Assembly: GCA_963792825.1 (NCBI GenBank)
Contig: CAWBXS010000005.1
Location: 226,308 to 290,307 of the forward strand
Length of the DNA: 64,000 bases
Source of the DNA: an uncultured delta proteobacterium
GTDB lineage: Bacteria > Myxococcota_A > Polyangia > Polyangiales > Houyiibacteriaceae
Reading direction: 5' to 3'
The notes under the pieces are model-generated. The model searched no databases. It saw only the letters and a list, made by a program, of their open reading frames with translations, and was not told where the DNA came from. The first letter of the stretch is position 1, and every line of letters starts with the position of its first letter. The translations under genes and the position numbers were made by a program. Below are positions 27,949 through 54,358 of this stretch, piece by piece.

Positions 27949-28554
27949 ATGACGCTTGTCGATCTGAGAACAACGCTTAGTTTCCTACCCCTGCTTCTCT
28001 TGTTGCTGTTCACCGCATGCAATGGCGGCAGCGGTCCCGAGCCCCCCGTCAACGTGATCGACCTCACCGGGGACGCGGGCTTCCAAGGCTGCAGTCAGCC
28101 GAGCTTCCCTTCGGAGCAACCCGACCTCTACGTGCTCCAGCCCCCGCGATTCCCGACCGACCGCCCCAACGGGCAGGCCGAGGTCGACCCCGGGGACCCC
28201 ATCGACGCGGAAATCTCGGTGAATAGCGCGACCCGCCAGGTCTTCATCGAGCTTCGAGACGGCTTTGACCCGACCTTCATGATCTACTCTACCGAAGTGG
28301 ACACGGCGGGGGGTGAGACCGTCCCGGTGTTGCTGTTGCCGCAGGACCAAACGCGGGGACGTTACTACATGAAGATCACCCTTTGCGGCTTCGACTGTGA
28401 CGAGCGCGAGGTCGTCTTCGACGCCAACCCCGACGTGAACTCCCGCTACGAACGCACCCTGATCGAAAACGGCGAAATCGTGCAAGTCGACCGGACGTGC
28501 ATCGACTTCACTGCAGACGCGGGCATTGGATCGGGCACCGTCATCATTCAGTAG
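27949..28554 (+). CDS. Hypothetical lipoprotein
   Basis: MTLVDLRTTLSFLPLLLLLLFTAC lipobox. The globular remainder of the 201-aa protein contains 5 further Cys residues. No family recognised. Confidence 0.6.
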   Translation: MTLVDLRTTLSFLPLLLLLLFTACNGGSGPEPPVNVIDLTGDAGFQGCSQPSFPSEQPDLYVLQPPRFPTDRPNGQAEVDPGDPIDAEISVNSATRQVFIELRDGFDPTFMIYSTEVDTAGGETVPVLLLPQDQTRGRYYMKITLCGFDCDEREVVFDANPDVNSRYERTLIENGEIVQVDRTCIDFTADAGIGSGTVIIQ

Positions 28555-28922
28555 TGTTTTCAAGCGGTGCTCAGGTCCGGTGTCCGGATTCAGCATCCGA
28601 TTGGAAGTTTTCGGACGTACGGTTGCACTGGCGACCCATTCAGGCGCGGACCGCAGCGCCGAGCCCATGGTCTGACGCGCTGCGCGGCACGCGTGTGATT
28701 TTTGCGACGGCGCAGGGATCTCCCGGGATTCATCGAGTGACACGCGGTGTGGGTGTTTTTGCACCACTGTGCGCGGCCTCACAAAAATTGCAAAAGACGT
28801 GTGGCCGACGTGTTTCCAGGTGTTGACTTTGCGAATCGTGTTGAGATAGCCACTCCAACGTGAACCCGTTTCAGACCGCTGCGCCCGGCGTAGCGAACTA
28901 TCCAATTCAAGGAGCGTAACGA

Positions 28923-31415
28923 ATGAGCAAGACACGATTTACCCCATGGATCGTGCTCGCATGTGTCACTGGCCTCGCAGCTTGTACGAGCGGCGGTGGT
29001 GGTACGGCGGGCAACACCGAGATGAATGTCATCGTCCCGAACGGTGCGCCTTCACTCGGCGGGGGGTCATCCGCCCCCGGTCTCATCGACATTACAACTG
29101 TCGAATATACCATCAACTGCCTCGGGAACAGCGATACGTTCCTAGACAACAACGCCAGCTTCCCCGACGAGGTCCAGATCAATGGTAACCTCGAAGTGGT
29201 CGACGGCCGGACGAGCCCCCAGGGCCCGATCCCGCCGGAGTTCGGCACCCCCCGCCCCGGCGACGGCGCGGAAATCTGGCAGGGCTTCATGGACCTGCCT
29301 CCCGGGCCCTGCACCGTGCAGCTTCGCGCGCGTGACGGCGACGGCGAGGTCATTTGTACCGCGACCGAGCCCTTCACCATCACGGCCGACTCGATCACCA
29401 AGGTCAACCTGGTGCTCATCTGTGACATCAGCTTCCAGGCTCCGGTCGGGATGCTCGACGTCGACGGCACCTTCAGCTTCAACGTCGGCAACTTCTGCCC
29501 CGACCTGTTCGTCCTGAACTGTGTCGACAGCGAGCCGGCCGAAGCCGATTACGGCATTGGCATTCCGATTGCGGCCACCTCCTGCGAGGTGCGTTTCCGT
29601 GACGGCGACAGCACGTGTGGCGCAGGCTGCGATCCGCAGAGCTGCACCGTGACGCCGGAAGGCCTGACCTGCGTTCCAGGTCCAGACCCAGGCGTCTCGA
29701 CGACCATCACCTGTGTCGGCGGCCAGGTCGACTGCGACGGCAACCCGCTCTCGACCGAGACCTCGTGCACCTTCTCCGGCGACACCACTGGCGTCGTTGG
29801 CGGTGGTCCGACCGCGCAACCGGGCACCTGGTTCGCAGGCTGCATCCCGCCGGCCCTCGGCGGCACCCCGGGTGCGATCGTCACCTGCACCGCGGTCACC
29901 ACGGACGGCGACCTCGACTGTGACAAGACCAAAGTGGTCAGCATCACCTGCCCAGGCCTCAGCCCTTGCGCGAACTTCGGCGCAGCCAACGGACAGACTG
30001 CTAACCAGGCGGGCGGCAACGCCGCTTGCGAGGCTGCAGCCGGAACGGTTTGCACGACCGACGTCTGCAACAACACCGGCTGCGACGGCGCCACGGCGGC
30101 TGCTTGCTGCACGAACACGCCGGTCGCGGACGGAACGAACTGCTCGGCGGAGCTCCCGCCCCTGGCCTCCTGCCAGGGTGGCGTTTGCCTGTCGGAATCC
30201 TGCACCAGCGACGCCGACTGCGAAGACCCGGCCACCGAGTGCTTGGTCGCTCCTCCCGGCGCGTGTAACCTTGGAACAGGTCTTTGCGGACCCGAGGTTC
30301 CTGTCGCGGACGGCACGTCGTGTAACGGCGGCGCTGGCACCTGTCAGTCTGGTACTTGCGCAGACAACTGCGCGGGCGTGGACTGCTCGGACGGCAACGA
30401 GTGTACGAACGACGTCTGCACCTCAGTCGGCGGCCCAACGTGCTCCAACCCGAACTCGGCCACTGGCACCCCGTGTAACGGCGGTCTCGGCAGCTGTGAC
30501 GGCGCGGGCGCCTGTGTCACCTTGATCGACTACCCGAACCAGAGCGCGGCGCTCACGGTTGGCTGTCGTAACAACGTCACCGCGGACATCTCGATCCTGC
30601 CGTTCTCGCTCGACGTGAACCCAGGTCCGATGGCGGCGGGTAGCGCGTTCACCGCGGTACTCGACGGTGTGGCGGCGTTCTCGGAGGCCTTCCTCGACGC
30701 GGCGCAAGCCGTCGTCCCGGGTGGCGTCAAGACCGGTCAGCTCATCGTGAGCAACGGCGGAGGCCTCGCGGCCACCGTCATCGCGACTGGTGCGGTCACC
30801 GGTGCGAACGTCCAGCTCGGACCGGACCCGGCATCGCTCAGCTCGCGCTGCGCGCTCACCGGTGTTCCTTGCACGGGCGCACCTGGCCTGGGCTCCTGCA
30901 CCTCGATCCCGGTCGTCAACAACAACTGCACGACAGGGTTCGTCGACATCCCGATCCTCTTCGGTATCGACACCGCCCCAGGTGGTTGTACACCGGCGAC
31001 CCCCGGGGTCCCGCCAGCTGCTTGTGACTGCTCACCCTGTGCAGCACTCGACACGGCTCCGGACACCACGAAGGCCAGCGAATGCGCTGCCAACGGCTTC
31101 TGCGTAACCGGCGACCTGCCGCTTCCGCTGAACGCCACCAACGGCAGCTACACCGCAGGCGCCACCTCGGGCCAGCCGATGTACTTCGATTGGCTGCAAC
31201 CCTACGGCCTCGACGTGGATGGCACGATCCTGCTCCCCGCAGCGGTCTTCTCGACCAACCCGGCTCCAGTCGGCGTGCGTGTGAGCGCTGGCGGTCTCTT
31301 CGTCGCACTTCAGTGCGCCGGAGCGGTCGACAGCGGTGGACCGGACGGTGTGGGCGTGCTCGACGACGCCTCCCCGACCCCGAACTCGTTGAAGAACACC
31401 TTCCTGGTTCCGTAA
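28923..31415 (+). CDS. Island paralog A1 (830 aa): lipobox + N-terminal module + multiple Cys-rich modules + conserved C-terminal family domain (...KNTFLVP*)
   Basis: AAGGAG RBS at 28909-28914. MSKTRFTPWIVLACVTGLAAC. The N-terminal module is near-identical at DNA level to the 31565 gene. It has CxDxNECTxDxC-type modules. The family domain starts near 30530 (LTVGCRNNVTADISILPF...). A terminator hairpin lies downstream. Confidence 0.85.
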   Translation: MSKTRFTPWIVLACVTGLAACTSGGGGTAGNTEMNVIVPNGAPSLGGGSSAPGLIDITTVEYTINCLGNSDTFLDNNASFPDEVQINGNLEVVDGRTSPQGPIPPEFGTPRPGDGAEIWQGFMDLPPGPCTVQLRARDGDGEVICTATEPFTITADSITKVNLVLICDISFQAPVGMLDVDGTFSFNVGNFCPDLFVLNCVDSEPAEADYGIGIPIAATSCEVRFRDGDSTCGAGCDPQSCTVTPEGLTCVPGPDPGVSTTITCVGGQVDCDGNPLSTETSCTFSGDTTGVVGGGPTAQPGTWFAGCIPPALGGTPGAIVTCTAVTTDGDLDCDKTKVVSITCPGLSPCANFGAANGQTANQAGGNAACEAAAGTVCTTDVCNNTGCDGATAAACCTNTPVADGTNCSAELPPLASCQGGVCLSESCTSDADCEDPATECLVAPPGACNLGTGLCGPEVPVADGTSCNGGAGTCQSGTCADNCAGVDCSDGNECTNDVCTSVGGPTCSNPNSATGTPCNGGLGSCDGAGACVTLIDYPNQSAALTVGCRNNVTADISILPFSLDVNPGPMAAGSAFTAVLDGVAAFSEAFLDAAQAVVPGGVKTGQLIVSNGGGLAATVIATGAVTGANVQLGPDPASLSSRCALTGVPCTGAPGLGSCTSIPVVNNNCTTGFVDIPILFGIDTAPGGCTPATPGVPPAACDCSPCAALDTAPDTTKASECAANGFCVTGDLPLPLNATNGSYTAGATSGQPMYFDWLQPYGLDVDGTILLPAAVFSTNPAPVGVRVSAGGLFVALQCAGAVDSGGPDGVGVLDDASPTPNSLKNTFLVP

Positions 31416-31452
31416 CGAGCAGGCTCTCGTAAGAGACGCCTAAACACAGAGA

Positions 31453-31487
31453 GACCCGCGAGCTTCGGCTCGCGGGTTTTCTCGTTT
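31453..31487 (+). terminator. Intrinsic terminator
   Basis: ACCCGCGAGC-TTCG-GCTCGCGGGT (10-bp GC stem, TTCG loop), followed by TTTTCTCGTTT. Confidence 0.7.
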
Positions 31488-31564
31488 AATCACTTGCGCG
31501 TCTCGCTGAACGCGTGTTTGCATCGAGTCTCGTTCTCCCGCCCCACCCGTTTCGAAAAATCCCC

Positions 31565-34030
31565 ATGTTGTTTCGCCACGCCCGATGGATCGCCCTCGCC
31601 TGTCTCGGAGCTCTCGCATGCGCGGGCGTCGAGGAGGGGCTCGCGGGCAACACCGAGATGAATGTCATCGTCCCGAACGGTGCGCCTTCGCTCGGCGGGG
31701 GGTCATCCGCCCCCGGTCTCATCGACATTCAAACCGTCGAGTACACCATCAACTGCCTCGGGAACAGCGATACGTTCCTAGACAACCACCTGAGCTTCCC
31801 CGACGAGGTCCAGATCAATGGTAACCTCGAAGTGGTCGACGGCCGGACGGACCCCCAGGGCCGGATCCCGCCCGAGCTCGGCACCCCCCGCCCCGGCGAT
31901 GGCGCGGAAATCTGGCAGGGCTTCATGGACCTGCCTCCCGGCCCCTGCACCGTGCAGCTTCGTGCACGGGACGGCGACGGCGAGGTCATCTGTACGGCCA
32001 CCGAGCCTTTCAACATCACGGCCGACACGATCACCAAGGTCAACCTGGTGCTCATCTGTGACATCAGCTTCCAGGCTCCGGTCGGGATGCTCGACGTCGA
32101 CGGCACCTTCAGCTTCAACGTCGGCAACTTCTGCCCCGACCTGTTCGTCCTGAACTGTCCAGAGAAGAACCCCGCAAGGGCCACTTGCGAGGTGCGTTTT
32201 CGGGACGGCGACAGCAGTTGCGGCGCAGGCTGCGATCCGCAGAGCTGTGTCACGACGCCCGAGGGCCTGAGCTGCACGCCGGGCCCGGATCCAGGAATCT
32301 CCACCACGGTCACTTGCACCAATCTGCGGATCGACTGTGACGGCAGACCCAACACGACGGAGACCAGCTGTACCTTCAGCGGCGACACGCTCGGCACGGT
32401 GGGAGGCTCGGGCGAAGGCGCCTTCGATGTGTCCTGCATTCCGCCCGGTCTCGGCGGCATCCCCGGCGTGGTCGGTACCTGCACCGCGATCACGACCGAT
32501 GGCGACGAGGACTGCAACAAGTCCAAGACATTTGCAATCCGGTGCCCCGGCCCGAATGCGTGCGCGGAGCTCACGCAAGTCGTGGTCACTCCGCTTCAGG
32601 CAGTGATCGGTAATTCGATCAACCTTTCCGCTACGGCGTCGGACGTGCAAGGAGACCCGATCACCTACCTTTGGAGTGGAACCGGAGGCGTCTTCGCGGA
32701 TCCCACTGCCGCGTCGACCACGTACACCTGCGCCGAGGTGGGTCCGCACGACATCCAGATCGCCGTGTCGGACGACAATTTCACGAGCTGCGTGGCCGAG
32801 TTCACCGTTACGATTACCTGCCTAGCCCAGTGCACGACTGACGTCGAGTGCGACGACGGCAGCGACTGCACGGTCAACACCTGCAATACGGGTGCCGGTC
32901 TGTGCGAGACTGCCAACGTCAGCGCTGGCACGTCGTGTAACGGCGACACTGGCCTCTGCGATGGCGCAGGCGTCTGTGTCGACAACTGCACGGGCGTGGA
33001 CTGCTCGGACGGCAACGAGTGCACCGACGACGTCTGCACCTCGGTGGGCGGCGCCGTGTGTAGCAACCCGAGCTTGCCCTCTGGCACTTCGTGTGCCGGC
33101 GGCATCGGCGTCTGTAACGCCGCCGGTACGTGCGTGAGCATTGAGCCTCCGGTTCAAACCGCGGCCCTCATGGTCGGCTGTCGTGGCAATGTCACCTCCG
33201 ACGTCTCGATCCTGCCGTTTGATCTGACGGTCACGCCAGGTCTGATAACGGCAAACGCTCCGTTCACCGCGAGCCTCGACGGTGTGGCGTCTTTCTCGGA
33301 GGCCTTCCTCGACGCGGCGCAGGCCGTCGTCCCCGGTGGCGTCCGGAGGGGTCAGCTCATCACGACCAACGGCGGAGGCCTCGCGGCCACGGTGGCGGTC
33401 AGCGGCGCAGCGACCGGTGCAGACGTCCAACTCGGCCCAGACCCCGCATCGCTCCAGCAGCGCTGCGCGCTCACCGGTCTTCCCTGCACGGGCGCGCCCA
33501 ACCTCGGCACCTGCACCTCGATCCCGGTCGTCAACAACAACTGCACGACCGGCTTCGTGGACATCCCCATCATCAACGGAACCCCGCTCAGCGCGGGTGG
33601 TTGTACGCCGCCCGCAGCGGGCTCGCCGCCACCCGACTGTGACTGCTCGCCCTGTACGGCAATCGACCCGGCTCCTCTGACCACGAAGACGGACCAGTGT
33701 CTCGCCAACGGGTTCTGCGTAAACGGCGACCTGCCGCTTCCACTGCAGGCCGCAACTGGCACTTACACCGCAGGCGCCACCTCGGGCTCCCTGATGTACT
33801 TCGACTGGGTCCAGCCCTACGGCATCGACGTCGATGGCACGATCCTGCTCCCGGCAGCCACGTTCGCGGACCCGCCTGCCCCGGTCGGCGTCCGCGTGAG
33901 CGCTGGCGGTCTCTTCGTCGCGCTTCAGTGCGCCGGAGGCGTCGACAGCGGTGGACCGGACGGCGTGGGTGTGCCCGACGACGTCTCCCCGACCCCGAAC
34001 GCGAACAAGATCACCTTCTTGGTCCCGTAA
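31565..34030 (+). CDS. Island paralog A2 (about 821 aa): signal peptide + N-terminal module + PKD-like module + Cys-rich modules + conserved C-terminal family domain (...KITFLVP*)
   Basis: MLFRHARWIALACLGALACAG signal, with the start at the internal Met (31565). It carries a YLWSGTGGVFADPTAASTTYTC PKD-like module that A1 lacks. The family domain starts near 33160 (LMVGCRGNVTSDVSILPF...). Confidence 0.85.
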   Translation: MLFRHARWIALACLGALACAGVEEGLAGNTEMNVIVPNGAPSLGGGSSAPGLIDIQTVEYTINCLGNSDTFLDNHLSFPDEVQINGNLEVVDGRTDPQGRIPPELGTPRPGDGAEIWQGFMDLPPGPCTVQLRARDGDGEVICTATEPFNITADTITKVNLVLICDISFQAPVGMLDVDGTFSFNVGNFCPDLFVLNCPEKNPARATCEVRFRDGDSSCGAGCDPQSCVTTPEGLSCTPGPDPGISTTVTCTNLRIDCDGRPNTTETSCTFSGDTLGTVGGSGEGAFDVSCIPPGLGGIPGVVGTCTAITTDGDEDCNKSKTFAIRCPGPNACAELTQVVVTPLQAVIGNSINLSATASDVQGDPITYLWSGTGGVFADPTAASTTYTCAEVGPHDIQIAVSDDNFTSCVAEFTVTITCLAQCTTDVECDDGSDCTVNTCNTGAGLCETANVSAGTSCNGDTGLCDGAGVCVDNCTGVDCSDGNECTDDVCTSVGGAVCSNPSLPSGTSCAGGIGVCNAAGTCVSIEPPVQTAALMVGCRGNVTSDVSILPFDLTVTPGLITANAPFTASLDGVASFSEAFLDAAQAVVPGGVRRGQLITTNGGGLAATVAVSGAATGADVQLGPDPASLQQRCALTGLPCTGAPNLGTCTSIPVVNNNCTTGFVDIPIINGTPLSAGGCTPPAAGSPPPDCDCSPCTAIDPAPLTTKTDQCLANGFCVNGDLPLPLQAATGTYTAGATSGSLMYFDWVQPYGIDVDGTILLPAATFADPPAPVGVRVSAGGLFVALQCAGGVDSGGPDGVGVPDDVSPTPNANKITFLVP

Positions 34031-34114
34031 CGACCAGGCCCTGGCAAAGCACCCATCTCCGGCTGAATGCGGCCGGGGCGGAGCTGTGTTATCAATATCC
34101 GCTCAGGAGGCCTC

Positions 34115-35812
34115 ATGACATCCCGTTGGTTAGCTTATTCGTCGGCGTTCCTCGCGCTGATGGCGCTCGGCGCTGCATGCAAAGGCGGTGGCGGTCCCGA
34201 GGTGACCTTCCTCGAGGTGCTCGAGACCTCGCCGGTCGAGGGAAGCGCTTCGGTCCAAGTCGAGACCCGAATCGGGTTTCGCATCAACGCGCCGATCGAC
34301 CCCGCCACGCTCACGGGCGACAACTTCTTCGTCACCGATTCGGACGGGACGCCCGTTCAAGGCGCGTTGGCGATCGATGAGCCGGACACCGCCGTGCTGA
34401 CCCCGGACGAGCCTCTCAACGTGCTGACGACGTACACCGCGACCATCACCACGGGGCTCAGCTCCCCGGGCGGCGCGATGCTCGAACAGGACTACGACTG
34501 GCAATTCACGACGCTCGACAGCGCATGGGGCGTCTCCGAGTGGCTCGAACAGGTCTCGACGGGGCTCTCGTCGAGACCACAAGTCGCGGTCGATGCGCAG
34601 AGCAACGCGCTCGCGGCCTGGGAGTACGAGGTCGTCGACGGAACGGGCATTTGGGCCAACCGCTATACGCGCGTCGACCTCTGGGGGGAGCCCGAGCAGA
34701 TCGACGATGGGAGCGGAGGCGCGGCCAAGCCAAGGCTGGCCGCCGACGACGCGGGTAACGGGTTCGTGGTTTGGGAGCAGACGACCCCAGGCACCTCGAT
34801 CGTCAACATCTGGACCAACCGCTACACCGTCGGCGAGGGCTGGGGCACCCCTGCCCTCCTTCAAAACGGTGAGGTCACTCAGGCGCGAAGCCCAGCGGTT
34901 GCCGCGGACCCTGCAGGCAACGCCATCGCAGTGTGGGTGCAGCGGGAGATGAGCGGCACGAATCAGGTCGTGTGGGCAATTCGTTACGAACCGGGCACCG
35001 GGTGGGGCACGGCGGCGCCCATCGACGACATGCCGACCCCGACTGCAGGGGAAGTGACGGCCGTCGGTATGGACGACGATGGCAACGCGATTGCCGTATG
35101 GGCGCGTCCGACGGTCCCGACGGCCGGCGGACGGTCCGAGGTGCTCTGGGCGAACCGCTACACGGCAGGCTTGGGTTGGGAAACCGCCACGCTCATCAAG
35201 CCCGACTCCGAGACCCGCGCGCTCGACCAGCGGCTCTCGGTCGGAGCGGGCGGCGACGCCTTCGTGGTCTGGACGCAAAACGACCCGCTGAGAGGTGACA
35301 TCGCCGACGTTTGGGGCGTTCGCTTCTCGGGCGCGACCTGGGGCGAGCCCGATCGGATCGACGATTATGACGATGCCGACAAGCTGCTGCCGGACATCGC
35401 GGTGGACGGCTCGGGCATTGCCCACGCGGTTTGGTCGCAGACCGATCCCGACTTCCAGAACATCTGGGCCAATCAGTACACGCCCGGCTCCGGGTGGGGC
35501 ACGCCGGAGCTGATCGAGCCGCCGAACATCGACCCGCTCGAAGACGCGGATGCCACCGAGCCGCGCATCGCCGTGAATGCGGCGGGCAACGCCTTCGTGG
35601 TCTGGCGCCAAACGTGGCAGGATTGGGGGAGCATTTGGTCCAATCGCCTCGACCCGGGAACCGGCTGGATGAACGCGGAGCTCATCGAGCAGATCGAGCG
35701 GGCAGCCAAGTCACCGAGGATCGCCGTCGACGACCGGCGTCATGCGCAGGCGGTGTGGCTGCACGCGCGCGACACCGGCATCGACTGGGTGCGAACCAAT
35801 CGCTTCGAGTAA
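34115..35812 (+). CDS. Lipoprotein with an SbsA-Ig/Big_5-like domain followed by 8 Trp-rich ~45-aa repeats (probable beta-propeller)
   Basis: AGGAGG RBS at 34105-34110. MTSRWLAYSSAFLALMALGAAC. VLETSPVEGSASVQVETRIGFRINAPIDPATL...TYTATITTGLSS is Big_5-like. There are eight repeats of the form P[RQ][IV]A[VA]D..GNA[FI][VA]VW......IW[AST]NRY. Confidence 0.75.
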   Translation: MTSRWLAYSSAFLALMALGAACKGGGGPEVTFLEVLETSPVEGSASVQVETRIGFRINAPIDPATLTGDNFFVTDSDGTPVQGALAIDEPDTAVLTPDEPLNVLTTYTATITTGLSSPGGAMLEQDYDWQFTTLDSAWGVSEWLEQVSTGLSSRPQVAVDAQSNALAAWEYEVVDGTGIWANRYTRVDLWGEPEQIDDGSGGAAKPRLAADDAGNGFVVWEQTTPGTSIVNIWTNRYTVGEGWGTPALLQNGEVTQARSPAVAADPAGNAIAVWVQREMSGTNQVVWAIRYEPGTGWGTAAPIDDMPTPTAGEVTAVGMDDDGNAIAVWARPTVPTAGGRSEVLWANRYTAGLGWETATLIKPDSETRALDQRLSVGAGGDAFVVWTQNDPLRGDIADVWGVRFSGATWGEPDRIDDYDDADKLLPDIAVDGSGIAHAVWSQTDPDFQNIWANQYTPGSGWGTPELIEPPNIDPLEDADATEPRIAVNAAGNAFVVWRQTWQDWGSIWSNRLDPGTGWMNAELIEQIERAAKSPRIAVDDRRHAQAVWLHARDTGIDWVRTNRFE

Positions 35813-35841
35813 CGCTCCGAGTTACTGCCTGGCCGAGCGCT

Positions 35842-36465
35842 TTAGAGGCTCGCTTCGCGCGTCGCTTCGAGCCGGAAGACCTGGACGCAGGGCGATTGGG
35901 CGTTGATCGACGCGATCGCATCGGCGTTGCGGCAGGTCGCGACGGTGCCGTCGAGCATCGGAGGGAACGTCGTTTCGACGGCTCTCGTATCGATGAGAAT
36001 GGTGTCGGTGCCCGTGGTGGTCAGCGTATGGACCTGCACCTCGGCTCGACATTGATCGTTCGCAGCGCCTGAGCTCGAGATCGCGTAGCCGACCCAGCCC
36101 GCCTGGTCGCTCCCCTGAATGAAGGAATAGCCAATCGCGGGCTCGGGGGCGAGGGCTACGACTTCCCGGCACGCGTCGACGCTGACACAGAAGATCCCAC
36201 CGAGACGCGCTTCATCGAGTTGGTCGTTCGGAACGAAGCTGTAGAGCGCGAGGTAACCCGCCGGCGGCGTAGCGTCGTTCAGCTGATCGCAGCTACCTTC
36301 GCTGACCTGGTAGGTGTCGATCTGGTAGACGGCGAGTAGCTCCGAATCGACCTTGGGCCCTCCCCCGCTGCTACCGCAGCCCAAGCTGCCGCCGCTGGTA
36401 CAGCCAAGCGCCAGGCAGGTGCCAAAGAACAAAGTCCTCGCGAAGTTAGTGATGTGCTGGTCCAT
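35842..36465 (-). CDS. Hypothetical lipoprotein
   Basis: MDQHITNFARTLFFGTCLALGCTSGGSLGCGSSGGG signal/lipobox with a Gly-rich linker. No family recognised. Confidence 0.55.
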   Translation of the reverse strand: MDQHITNFARTLFFGTCLALGCTSGGSLGCGSSGGGPKVDSELLAVYQIDTYQVSEGSCDQLNDATPPAGYLALYSFVPNDQLDEARLGGIFCVSVDACREVVALAPEPAIGYSFIQGSDQAGWVGYAISSSGAANDQCRAEVQVHTLTTTGTDTILIDTRAVETTFPPMLDGTVATCRNADAIASINAQSPCVQVFRLEATREASL

Positions 36466-53049: not shown

Positions 53050-54195
53050 CTACTGAATGGACACAGTCACTAGGCACTCGTTGCTGCCGCCGGTCGCGCC
53101 GTTGCCGCCCGTGCCGTTGCCGCCCGTGCCGTTGCCGCCCGTGCCGTTGCCGCCGGTGCCGTTACCGCCTGTGCCGCCGGTGCCGTTGCCACCCGTGCCG
53201 CCGGTGCCGTTGCCACCCGTGCCGCCGGTGCCGTTACCACCCGTGCCGCCGGTGCCGTTACCACCCGTGCCGCCTGCTCCGCCGCTGCCACCGGTGCCGC
53301 CACCGACACCACCGACGCCGCCAGCTCCGCCGCTGCCACCGGTGCCGCCACCGACACCACCAACGCCGCCTGCTCCGCCACTGCCACCGGTGCCGCCACC
53401 GACACCACCAACGCCGCCTGCTCCGCCGCTGCCGGCGGTACCGCCCGTGCCACTACTGCCGCCACTGCCACCGGTGCCGCCCGTGCCCTCGTCGTCGACG
53501 CAGGTCACGTCGATCGTCCATCCGTCGGAGCAGTACTCGTGACCGTCGTCCGAGACCTCGATCGTGATCGCTTCCTCACCCGCATCACCGCAGGTGAAGA
53601 TCGTCTGGGCTGCGTTTGGATCATCAAACGAACCACCGGTCGCCGTCCAGAGGTACGCGATCGGGTCGTCCTCTTCGTCGCTGGCCTGGGCCTGGACCTC
53701 GAGCGCGTATCCGCTCGCGGTTTGTAGTGGGGCGACGACGACTTTCTGAAGCTCCGCGCAGATGTTGAGCTTTCCGTTCACGCGGACCCCGCCGAACTGC
53801 TGTGACGCTTTGCAATTGAGGATGACGTCAATTTGAGTGCTCGCGCCCGCGCTCACGCTGAACGATGCCGCACCGCCGCAGGTGAGCGTGCCGTCGACCG
53901 AGGTCGCGATCATCTCGATCACGTAGCCGTCTCCGGGCGGAAGGCCGAACTCCTCGACCGAGGCAGTGGACCCAGGTGCGCTGGTGTTGATCGTGCCGGT
54001 GACCGGTTCGGCGAGCCCGTTGCCGCTGATCTCGTACGACACCTCGTCGATGACGGCGCCGTCACCAACCTCGAGGTTGACGCGCAACGCGGTCGCACAG
54101 GGATCGACTACGTCGCTGCCGCTGTTACAACCGACCGCCGTAACGGCGAAGACCAGAGACCATGCAATGGCCTTGAGCGAGCTCCAATTCGTCAT
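53050..54195 (-). CDS. Island-type lipoprotein: N-terminal Ig-like module + PKD-like module + long Gly-rich tandem-repeat C-terminus
   Basis: MTNWSSLKAIAWSLVFAVTAVGC. INTSAPGSTASVEEFGLPPGDGYVIEM...GGVRVNGKLNICAEL...YLWTATGGSFDDPNAAQTIFTC closely parallels the 36710 gene. It then runs about 130 aa of GTGG-type repeats and ends NECLVTVSIQ*. Confidence 0.8.
   Translation of the reverse strand: MTNWSSLKAIAWSLVFAVTAVGCNSGSDVVDPCATALRVNLEVGDGAVIDEVSYEISGNGLAEPVTGTINTSAPGSTASVEEFGLPPGDGYVIEMIATSVDGTLTCGGAASFSVSAGASTQIDVILNCKASQQFGGVRVNGKLNICAELQKVVVAPLQTASGYALEVQAQASDEEDDPIAYLWTATGGSFDDPNAAQTIFTCGDAGEEAITIEVSDDGHEYCSDGWTIDVTCVDDEGTGGTGGSGGSSGTGGTAGSGGAGGVGGVGGGTGGSGGAGGVGGVGGGTGGSGGAGGVGGVGGGTGGSGGAGGTGGNGTGGTGGNGTGGTGGNGTGGTGGNGTGGTGGNGTGGNGTGGNGTGGNGTGGNGATGGSNECLVTVSIQ
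53090..53470 (-). repeat. Coding Gly-rich tandem repeats (15-nt GNGTG x4, 24-nt GTGGTGGN x4, 48-nt GTGGSGGAGGVGGVGG x3)
   Basis: Read directly from the DNA (plus strand GTGCCGTTGCCGCCC... / GGTGCCGTTGCCACCCGTGCCGCC... / CTCCGCCGCTGCCACCGGTGCCGCCACCGACACCACC...). Confidence 0.8.
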
Positions 54196-54358
54196 ACTTT
54201 TCCTCGGTACAATCTTCGGCAGGGGGGATGGGGGGACCGCCGAGCTCACTGCATGCGCAGAGCGGCCAGTCTACCCCCAACAGGGGTCCGGCCGTCAATA
54301 GGCGCGTTGCACAGAGTGCGAGAATTGTTGGGAGAACTGCCATCGAGCGTACGGATTT

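Follow-up and report, generated by a model that had tools for sequence, protein, structure and literature searches.

Probable segmental gene conversion in an old tandem pair of predicted surface lipoprotein genes from uncultured Myxococcota

A 64,000-nucleotide (nt) stretch from the genome of an uncultured delta proteobacterium (hereafter the window; contig CAWBXS010000005.1 of assembly GCA_963792825.1) contains two co-oriented genes, termed A1 and A2, which fill an interval flagged in an initial annotation and share a 516-nt block of near identity. This block is very probably a gene-conversion tract in an old gene pair that has undergone recurrent conversion and replacement of internal cassettes. 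The tract, its age relative to the duplication, conflicting phylogenies, strain polymorphism, and cassette replacement are shown by the data. The two proteins are 70% identical overall at the amino acid (aa) level and have one common layout, that is, a signal peptide, the domain encoded by the block (N-block), a Cys-containing segment (mid1), a variable central region, and a C-terminal module of ~300 aa (C-mod); in A1, this layout comprises a lipoprotein signal, the N-block, mid1, a Cys-rich central cassette, and the C-mod. The features of the pair are the following:

28923..31415, + strand: A1, open reading frame (ORF) of 830 aa, copy 1 of the tandem pair
29007..29522, + strand: conversion tract, A1 copy; encodes the N-block, the family's most conserved domain
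29392..29522, + strand: perfect run of 131 nt closing the tract on its 3′ side, identical (131/131) to 32028–32158 in A2
29523..29972, + strand: mid1 of A1; copy-specific, keeps the orthology signal (A2 counterpart, 32159–32566)
29973..30512, + strand: central Cys-rich cassette of A1; 29866–30440 is replaced in a near-identical strain
30513..31412, + strand: C-mod of A1, ~300 aa, beta-rich; a patch at 31173–31420 differs between strains
31453..31490, + strand: hairpin in the A1–A2 spacer; GC-rich, with the T-run TTTTCTCGTTT after the stem
31565..34030, + strand: A2, ORF of 821 aa from ATG 31565, copy 2 of the tandem pair
31643..32158, + strand: conversion tract, A2 copy; 95% identical to the A1 copy
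31787..31863, + strand: strain-polymorphic short tract in A2 (= 29151–29227 in A1), seen in the L006 allele
32567..32827, + strand: PKD-like module of A2, 87 aa; occupies the place of the default Cys-rich segment
33140..34027, + strand: C-mod of A2; 75% aa identical to the A1 C-mod, with synonymous divergence (dS) of 0.46

Loci of relatives are labeled L001–L040 and database proteins P0001 and so on; R1 denotes the single-copy orthologue in L001/L002, and L4_1 and L4_2 are the two copies in L004.

The near-identical block and the age of the pair

At a fixed offset of 2636, the two copies of the tract differ at 26 of 516 nt (95% identity). Its edges are abrupt, with identity collapsing within a few bases at both ends, and the rest of A1 and A2 outside it is only 38–85% identical. 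The initial annotation had estimated ∼95% identity between 29010–29521 and 31646–32157, and the measured value is 94.9% (486/512); it had also called the signal-peptide regions upstream of the block unrelated, and they were indeed dissimilar on comparison. The perfect match that it reported at the end of the block is real and covers 131 of 131 nt, but the A2 coordinates assigned to it, 32027–32155, are off by one and, taken literally, give 22% identity. With 26 differences in 516 nt as the block's own divergence, a perfect run of 131 nt has a probability of p = 0.01; it may be a younger tract nested in the larger one.

Synonymous sites set the block apart most clearly. Between A1 and A2, it has a dS of 0.13 and a nonsynonymous divergence (dN) of 0.03 (Nei-Gojobori, codon alignment), whereas dS in three segments downstream of it is 0.98, 0.72, and 0.46. 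When dS was computed along the alignment, a check proposed with the initial annotation, it fell from 0.46–1.0 to 0.13 only inside the block. The 26 differences in the block consist of 15 synonymous and 11 nonsynonymous ones; synonymous differences thus occur at 15 of 124 sites in the block versus 175 of 418 outside (Fisher p = 1.3e-10), and none of 20,000 permutations gave a 150-codon window as poor in them.

The gene family to which the pair belongs could be followed in other genomes. Protein searches returned only hypothetical proteins from Myxococcales, Polyangiales, and "Deltaproteobacteria" (metagenome-assembled genomes [MAGs] and metagenomes), most of them without a Pfam domain, and among GTDB species representatives, a scan detected members exclusively in uncultured Myxococcota, adding three further tandem pairs (L013, L019, and L022). 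The tandem pair is present in five other genomes altogether, and in two of them, the more distant relatives L004 and L005, it lies between the same flanking genes as in the window. L003 and L006, from another sample, carry strain-level alleles of A1 and A2. A close relative (L001/L002) has the same neighbors, but in place of A1 and A2, it has only one gene, R1; upstream of R1 lie genes for a protein of ~965 aa and then for proteins of 351 and 199 aa, and downstream follow genes for a Big_5 protein and for an oppositely oriented 206-aa protein, as well as genes resembling A3 and A4.

Because the same pair is found between the same flanks in L004 and L005, at a dS of about 0.9, the duplication predates the tract; it is old and occurred before the lineages of the window and L004 split. 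The copy-1 signal peptide, MSKTRFT.WIVLAC...LAAC, is common to the window, L004, and L005, and motifs just after the block (CPEKNP..ATCEVRF, LRIDCDGRPNTTETSC, and EGAFDV.CIPPG.GGIPGVVG) are common to A2 and L4_2. The proposal of a recent duplication in the initial annotation is contradicted by the L004 and L005 pairs in the same place and by the copy-2 grouping of mid1 (86% nt identity, 100% bootstrap), and A1 and A2 can be annotated as real, old, and distinct genes. The single gene in L001/L002 is better read as a loss, in which the R lineage would have lost copy 2; deletion by unequal recombination between direct repeats is a plausible route to R1. In the C-mod, R1 groups with A1 (97% bootstrap), yet its C-terminal tail, ANKIQFLVP, resembles that of A2.

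Pairwise divergence differs between the segments of the genes:

N-block, A1 versus A2: 95% nt identity, dS 0.13
N-block, L4_1 versus L4_2: 94% nt identity, dS 0.17
N-block, window versus L004, all four pairs: 74–75% nt identity, dS 0.88–0.97
N-block, A1 versus R1: 84% nt identity, dS 0.61
N-block, A2 versus R1: 84% nt identity, dS 0.585
mid1, A2 versus L4_2: 86% nt identity, dS 0.42
mid1, A1 versus A2: 67% nt identity, dS 1.0

Outside the block, dS between A1 and A2 (0.46–1.0) is as large as between A1 and R1 or A2 and R1. The phylogenies conflict in the same manner. In neighbor-joining trees of the N-block, the copies group within their genomes, with bootstrap values of 100% for (A1,A2) and 99% for (L4_1,L4_2), whereas mid1 joins A2 with L4_2 at 100% and A1 with A2 at 0%. 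The C-mod again groups by genome (100%) and not by copy, with (A1,R1) at 97%. Homogenization of the block followed the separation of the R lineage from that of the window, and it took place independently in the lineage of L004.

Recurrence, exchange of modules, and alternative explanations

The N-terminal segment is homogenized in five of the six genomes with tandem pairs. In L004, L013, L019, and L022, the 5′ segments of the copies are 93–100% identical (nt), the signal-peptide windows only 47–74%. Over the N-terminal region, the copies are 94–100% identical in L013, 99.3% identical over 989 nt in L019, and 85–97% identical in L022; in these three, identity is 49–74% in the signal-peptide windows and below 60% in the 3′ parts. 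In all genomes examined, the homogenized tract starts right behind the signal peptide.

Conversion is recurrent and still ongoing. In the A2 allele of L006, which is otherwise essentially identical to the window, including the spacer, up to 35957, seven consecutive sites of the 26 that are diagnostic for the copies are in the A1 state, with sites in the A2 state on both sides (31787–31863). Only 20 of the 657,800 possible placements of seven switched sites among 26 are contiguous. This short tract, as evidence for an active process, comes from one alternative allele only. The possibility of ongoing conversion, raised in the initial annotation as one of two readings, agrees with the drop in dS confined to the block, with the conflict between block and flank trees at 100% bootstrap, and with this strain polymorphism.

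The C-mod evolves in concert too. That of copy 1 in L006 is a mosaic, in which a patch at 30876–30996 is closest to A2 (93% versus 77% to A1), and the C-mods of the L005 pair are 91% identical to each other (dS 0.15). Of the further paralogues described below, A3 and A4 share a second, conversion-like tract at their 3′ ends (38775–39080 versus 40204–40509): their last 300 nt are 96% identical and include a perfect run of 144 nt (38937–39080 = 40366–40509) extending beyond the stop codon, whereas identity drops to only about 70% in mid-C-mod. The relative shows the same trend, with 96% identity between the C-mods of R3 and R4 as compared to only 77% between these and their respective positional orthologues, A3 and A4.

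Beside the conversion of conserved modules, the central region is subject to replacement. The A1 allele of L003 is 100% identical to the window over 28519–29865 (one mismatch) and 30440–31172, but only 46–68% identical, with indels, between 29866 and 30440, and it is patchy over 31173–31420 as well. Thus, the central cassette of A1 was replaced between near-identical strains, with conserved modules flanking it. The A1-type cassette is the default segment at this position in most homologues. In A2, the module at 32567–32827, containing YLWSGTGG...TTYTC, lies where A1 has a Cys-rich segment, close to where the initial annotation had placed it (∼32560–32820). Its match to the Pfam model PKD (PF00801; E 4.8e-4, 20.5 bits) is below the gathering score of 23.5, and that to PKD_4 (16.6 bits) is below the cut-off of 27, so that "PKD-like" denotes a resemblance only. 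Otherwise, the module is found in A3-type proteins (A3, 51% aa identity over 175 aa; P0147, 59%; P0114, 53%); besides A2, the sole N-block homologue carrying it is P0045 (48%), and it is absent from the A2 orthologue L4_2. By this distribution, the replacement is specific to the lineage but not recent. The cassette-like exchange initially proposed for internal modules is borne out by both the unrelated central cassette of L003 and the PKD-like module in place of the default Cys-rich segment in A2.

Mechanistically, the tract presumably arose when homologous recombination of the RecA type, non-reciprocal in kind, joined the two direct repeats, which are separated by 2.6 kb, and overwrote the N-terminal domain of one copy with that of the other; this enzymology is assumed by inference. 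The tract stops where homology collapses: its 5′ limit is the signal peptide and its 3′ limit is mid1, both of which are copy-specific. The conserved N- and C-terminal modules probably act as homology arms too, with recombination inside them replacing the variable cassette in between.

Alternatively, A2 could be a young copy of A1, with the block as the undiverged remainder and the other parts altered by fast divergence or replacement. The two genes are co-oriented neighbors of one architecture and 70% identical (aa) overall, and the close relative L001/L002 has a single gene at the site. However, L004 and L005 carry the pair between the same flanks, mid1 of the window's copy 2 groups with that of L004 copy 2 (100% bootstrap), the copy-1 signal peptide is conserved across genomes, and dS between A1 and A2 outside the block (0.46–1.0) equals the level seen between either of them and R1, which makes a recent tandem duplication very unlikely. 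The block might also have been frozen by selection acting on the encoded domain, the codon usage, or an overlapping signal in the nucleic acid: no part of the family is more conserved than the N-block (60–87% aa), dN is low (0.03), and GC content at third codon positions is somewhat higher in the block (0.85–0.87 versus 0.80). Yet, the same codons show a dS of 0.6 versus R1 and about 0.9 versus L004, the L005 pair has a dS of 0.91 in the block, and grouping of the block by genome alongside grouping of mid1 by copy cannot result from constraint. It cannot explain the block because the synonymous sites of the latter vary between genomes, and this explanation is hardly credible. Nor is the metagenomic origin of the sequence likely to account for the pattern. 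The source is a MAG contig and other MAG contigs often break inside the N-block, so the second block, or the whole tandem, might stem from a collapsed or duplicated repeat; but such a duplication artefact would be 100% identical, whereas the copies differ at 26 sites, mostly synonymous. Furthermore, L003 and L006, which come from an independent sample and assembly, collinearly tile 28519–35957 and both cross the A1–A2 spacer, L003 reproducing the A1 block exactly and L006 reproducing A2 with its own diagnostic sites, and the tandem arrangement recurs in five other assemblies. At the level of contigs, an assembly duplication, a concern raised with the initial annotation, is thus highly improbable.

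Recombination could also be favored by selection because it generates surface variants particular to a strain, which would help in recognizing kin or prey or in evading phages, the N-terminal domain serving as a uniform anchor or delivery module. The three A1 alleles (window, L003, and L006) differ in cassette and C-mod within near-identical DNA, two of them coming from one sample; the N-terminal domain is homogenized in five of six genomes; the same N-terminal region is paired with alternative C-termini, including an EEP nuclease/phosphatase; and Cys-rich repeats are of a kind found in the myxobacterial receptor TraA. On the other hand, no NCBIfam model of SitA or TraA is matched at threshold, no immunity-like gene follows the EEP-bearing homologues examined, and both genes are complete, with signal peptides of their own and a probable terminator in between, which is not the arrangement of an expression site with silent cassettes. 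As neutral ectopic recombination fits the patterns equally well, selected diversification is rather unlikely as the explanation.

Gene conversion in an old pair, with recurrent homogenization of the block and replacement of cassettes, remains by far the best supported reading, but several observations weigh against it or limit it. Within the block, R1 is as far from A1 as from A2, so the donor cannot be assigned with confidence, and, at the seven-site tract, R1 shares the A1 state at five sites and the A2 state at two, which leaves ambiguous which allele was converted. Homogenization is not universal, as the N-block of the L005 pair lacks it (dS 0.91). Among the independent contigs, none spans both blocks; the overlap of L003 and L006 is confined to 30131–31507, where they differ and hence represent two haplotypes. 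Finally, the N-block is under strong purifying selection throughout the family, and its aa identity alone is no evidence; therefore, the case rests on the synonymous sites and the conflict between trees.

Six contigs of other genomes end (L026, L028, L029, and L032) or start (L015 and L031) inside the N-block, two of those from MAG EBRS3.bin2 ending at about the same residue. Because assemblers break at near-identical intragenomic repeats, this suggests that homogenization of the N-block is common and that the family is under-assembled in MAGs, and it calls for caution in MAG assembly. Scans of metagenome contigs for further strain alleles, using the A1–A2 spacer and the perfect run as exact patterns, gave no match; a cluster listing yielded P0263 and contig L006.

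Predicted proteins and the surrounding island

A1 is an exact match to the database protein P0001. For A2, the ORF finder placed the start at GTG 31514, while the database version P0004 has 821 aa and starts at ATG 31565. The latter was adopted because it yields a normal signal peptide (MLFRHARWIALACLGALAC) and agrees with P0004; GTG 31514 is the less likely start. The signal peptides of A1 and A2 are dissimilar, but both have a lipobox-like end after a hydrophobic core (...GLAAC in A1 and ...GALAC in A2), and an N-terminal lipoprotein signal is predicted for both proteins. The spacer between the genes is almost invariant between the strain alleles L003 and L006. Its hairpin at 31453–31490 (fold ΔG −28.8 kcal/mol, z = −5.9) is probably the intrinsic terminator of A1, and with a terminator between them, A1 and A2 would be separate transcription units. 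A consensus scan for sigma-70 promoters and terminators over 28.4–34.3 kb gave counts near the shuffle expectation and missed this hairpin.

Sequence and profile searches with A1, A2, and both modules against Pfam, NCBIfam, and the PDB found nothing above threshold; at E ≤ 0.01, A1 and A2 gave only faint NCBIfam matches to regions of M36 peptidases. The N-block and mid1 form the conserved core, the N-block being 60–87% identical (aa) across 114 homologues. The C-mod is present in only 39 of 120 homologues, while the remainder terminate in EEP (PF03372) or in different long regions; frequently, it is the sole module following a signal peptide (examples are A4, A5, and A6), and its family is small (169 clusters at E ≤ 1e-3 among 1.84 billion protein representatives). 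An AlphaFold2 model of the C-mod is mostly beta (mean predicted local distance difference test [pLDDT] 86, predicted template modeling [TM] score 0.79). This model had no significant match among PDB structures and no significant superposition with beta-pore-forming toxins (leukocidin/alpha-hemolysin fold), and no nuclease signature was seen in the C-mod. The model of the N-terminal region, built with 26 sequences, is poor (pLDDT 59.5, the block part mostly <60); its Foldseek matches are generic tandem Ig/FnIII-like sandwiches (RbmA, arrestins, and pilins) with TM scores of 0.2–0.28, and a beta-sandwich-like fold can be proposed with low confidence only.

A1 and A2 are probably extracytoplasmic and lipid-anchored at the surface because they have many cysteines, lipobox-like signals, and neighbors with PKD, Big_5, RTX, and Cys-rich-repeat features. 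A role in surface display, adhesion, or recognition is favored, at about even odds. The two domains without a relative in Pfam or the PDB, the many paralogues per genome, the mosaicism at strain level, and the restriction to Myxococcota form a pattern typical of loci for interactions between cells, with prey, or with phages; if such a role were established, the family would provide a new handle on social or predatory recognition in uncultured myxobacteria. It is conceivable, if improbable, that the island around the pair is an undescribed polymorphic surface-lipoprotein system of uncultured Myxococcota. In such a system, an N-terminal anchor or delivery domain, kept uniform among paralogues by recurrent conversion, would carry distal cassettes and C-terminal modules that recombination in the conserved arms exchanges among paralogues and strains, yielding strain-specific variants for recognition or antagonism.

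This island extends over about 16.4–44.8 kb, encodes secreted modular proteins, and is conserved in order in at least four genomes. Its members are a 1510-aa PKD/DUF4215 protein, an RTX protein, a 981-aa protein, A1–A6, a Big_5 protein, and a 448-aa protein with four PKD-like repeats; the distal end of the island in relatives adds a gene of the animal-heme-peroxidase type and EEP-domain genes (L002 and L040). Two further paralogues were delineated:

36710..39077, + strand: A3; different N-terminus, PKD-like module, Cys-rich repeats, and C-mod; frameshift near 37645
39235..40506, + strand: A4; signal peptide, Gly-rich linker, and C-mod

A3 is split into two overlapping ORFs (36710–37951 and 37707–39077) by one extra base in ...CCCGAAACACGGGCAG..., the removal of which restores CNPETGQCETSNV; its orthologue in L002 is an intact gene of 742 aa. 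The frameshift either marks a pseudogene or is a sequencing error in the repetitive Cys-rich region. The linker of A4 (39300–39620), between signal peptide and C-mod, is a long stretch of low complexity rich in Gly, Ser, and Met, with (GGSGGM)-like repeats, and its DNA creates a spurious Ala/His-rich ORF on the opposite strand (39055–40290).

Upstream of the pair, 21055–22857 (− strand) encodes a divergent family member with an N-block (38% aa), a mid1-like segment, and then RTX repeats (PF00353, E 1.3e-8); its orthologues occupy the same place in L001, L004, and L005. The 981-aa protein (23743–26688, − strand) lies directly upstream of the pair, a position conserved among all syntenic loci. 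It has faint matches of the beta-propeller type (SGL and Lactonase) and two CxxCH motifs (CSSCH and CAGCH), suggesting a secreted protein that binds c-type heme. About 15 kb from the main cluster, 53050–54249 (− strand) encodes a relative with the A3 N-terminus and a PKD-like module, 51% identical (aa) to the L002 A3 orthologue over 239 aa; a search of this protein against Pfam gave no match.

Comparison with known systems

Conversion among clustered homologues also occurs in programmed antigenic variation. Neisseria pilE/pilS and Borrelia vlsE consist of one expression site and promoterless partial cassettes, between which switching occurs at high frequency. As in these systems, segmental conversion alters a predicted surface protein of the pair; a programmed cassette system was nevertheless rejected, given that each of A1, A2, A4, A5, and A6 is a complete ORF with a signal peptide of its own and that a probable terminator lies between A1 and A2. 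No specialized recombination signal was found for A1/A2. Segmental, non-reciprocal conversion between duplicated surface genes is also known from Brucella omp2a/omp2b and Helicobacter pylori bab/sab. These share with A1/A2 the mosaic genes, the concerted evolution within a genome, and the differences between strains; however, they encode porins and adhesins of host-associated pathogens, with known functions, whereas the A1/A2 family is uncharacterized and stems from free-living Myxococcota of sediment or soil.

Two systems of myxobacteria resemble the pair in the architecture of their proteins. SitA polymorphic lipoprotein toxins combine N-terminal escort domains with C-terminal polymorphic nucleases (PMC8546572, PMC5562445). 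A1 and A2 are likewise predicted lipoproteins with a conserved N-terminal domain and variable C-terminal modules, and some of their homologues end in EEP, but their C-mod is beta-rich and also stands alone behind a signal peptide (A4, A5, and A6). Membership in SitA was rejected, as no SitA family was matched at E ≤ 0.01 and neither a nuclease signature nor an adjacent immunity gene was found; the gene downstream of A2 encodes a 581-aa Big_5 protein. In the two neighborhoods of EEP-bearing homologues inspected for an immunity partner, L039 has no small co-oriented downstream gene, and in L040, the homologue lies inside the same island.

TraA (NF033759; PMC6372800), going by the accessible part of the source, is similar in being a polymorphic myxobacterial cell-surface protein with Cys-rich repeats. 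A3 matches the Myxo_Cys_RPT model TIGR04201 (E 5.6e-7) and has a faint match to the TraA repeats. The latter match reaches 15.8 bits against a cut-off of 750 for NF033759 and is confined to the repeat region, and A1 and A2 have none; the family was therefore not assigned to TraA. A PA14-type variable domain or MYXO-CTERM was not detected in A1 and A2, which apparently have an N-terminal lipid anchor instead. A surface-lipoprotein system of the kind considered above, with the C-mod and, in relatives, EEP as distal modules, would be a functional analogue of TraA and SitA unrelated to them in sequence, a parallel that is doubtful at present.

The closest described case is the tandem lipoprotein-like (lpl) cluster of Staphylococcus aureus. 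As far as the accessible text of that study goes, a conserved stretch within the lpl ORFs is the site of homologous recombination, the variable regions are shuffled between copies and strains, and parts of one ORF give disagreeing phylogenies (Tsuru & Kobayashi, 2008; PMC2568036). To that extent, both cases combine tandem paralogous lipoprotein genes with a conserved intragenic recombination site and incongruent parts of ORFs. In the lpl genes as described there, the conserved site is central and the variable regions flank it, whereas A1 and A2 have conserved modules at both ends (signal peptide excepted) and a variable cassette in the center; the lpl unit of evolution given in the same text consists of the 3′ part of one ORF, the spacer, and the 5′ part of the next, whereas the comparison for A1/A2 comprises three alleles. 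The lpl proteins and phylum are unrelated to those of A1/A2. The mechanism is of a known kind and the protein family is undescribed; particular to A1/A2 is that the tract coincides with one discrete domain that was homogenized repeatedly across lineages. With orthologous loci, independent alleles, and tract edges that are domain edges, the pair provides a clean case of segmental conversion combined with cassette replacement.

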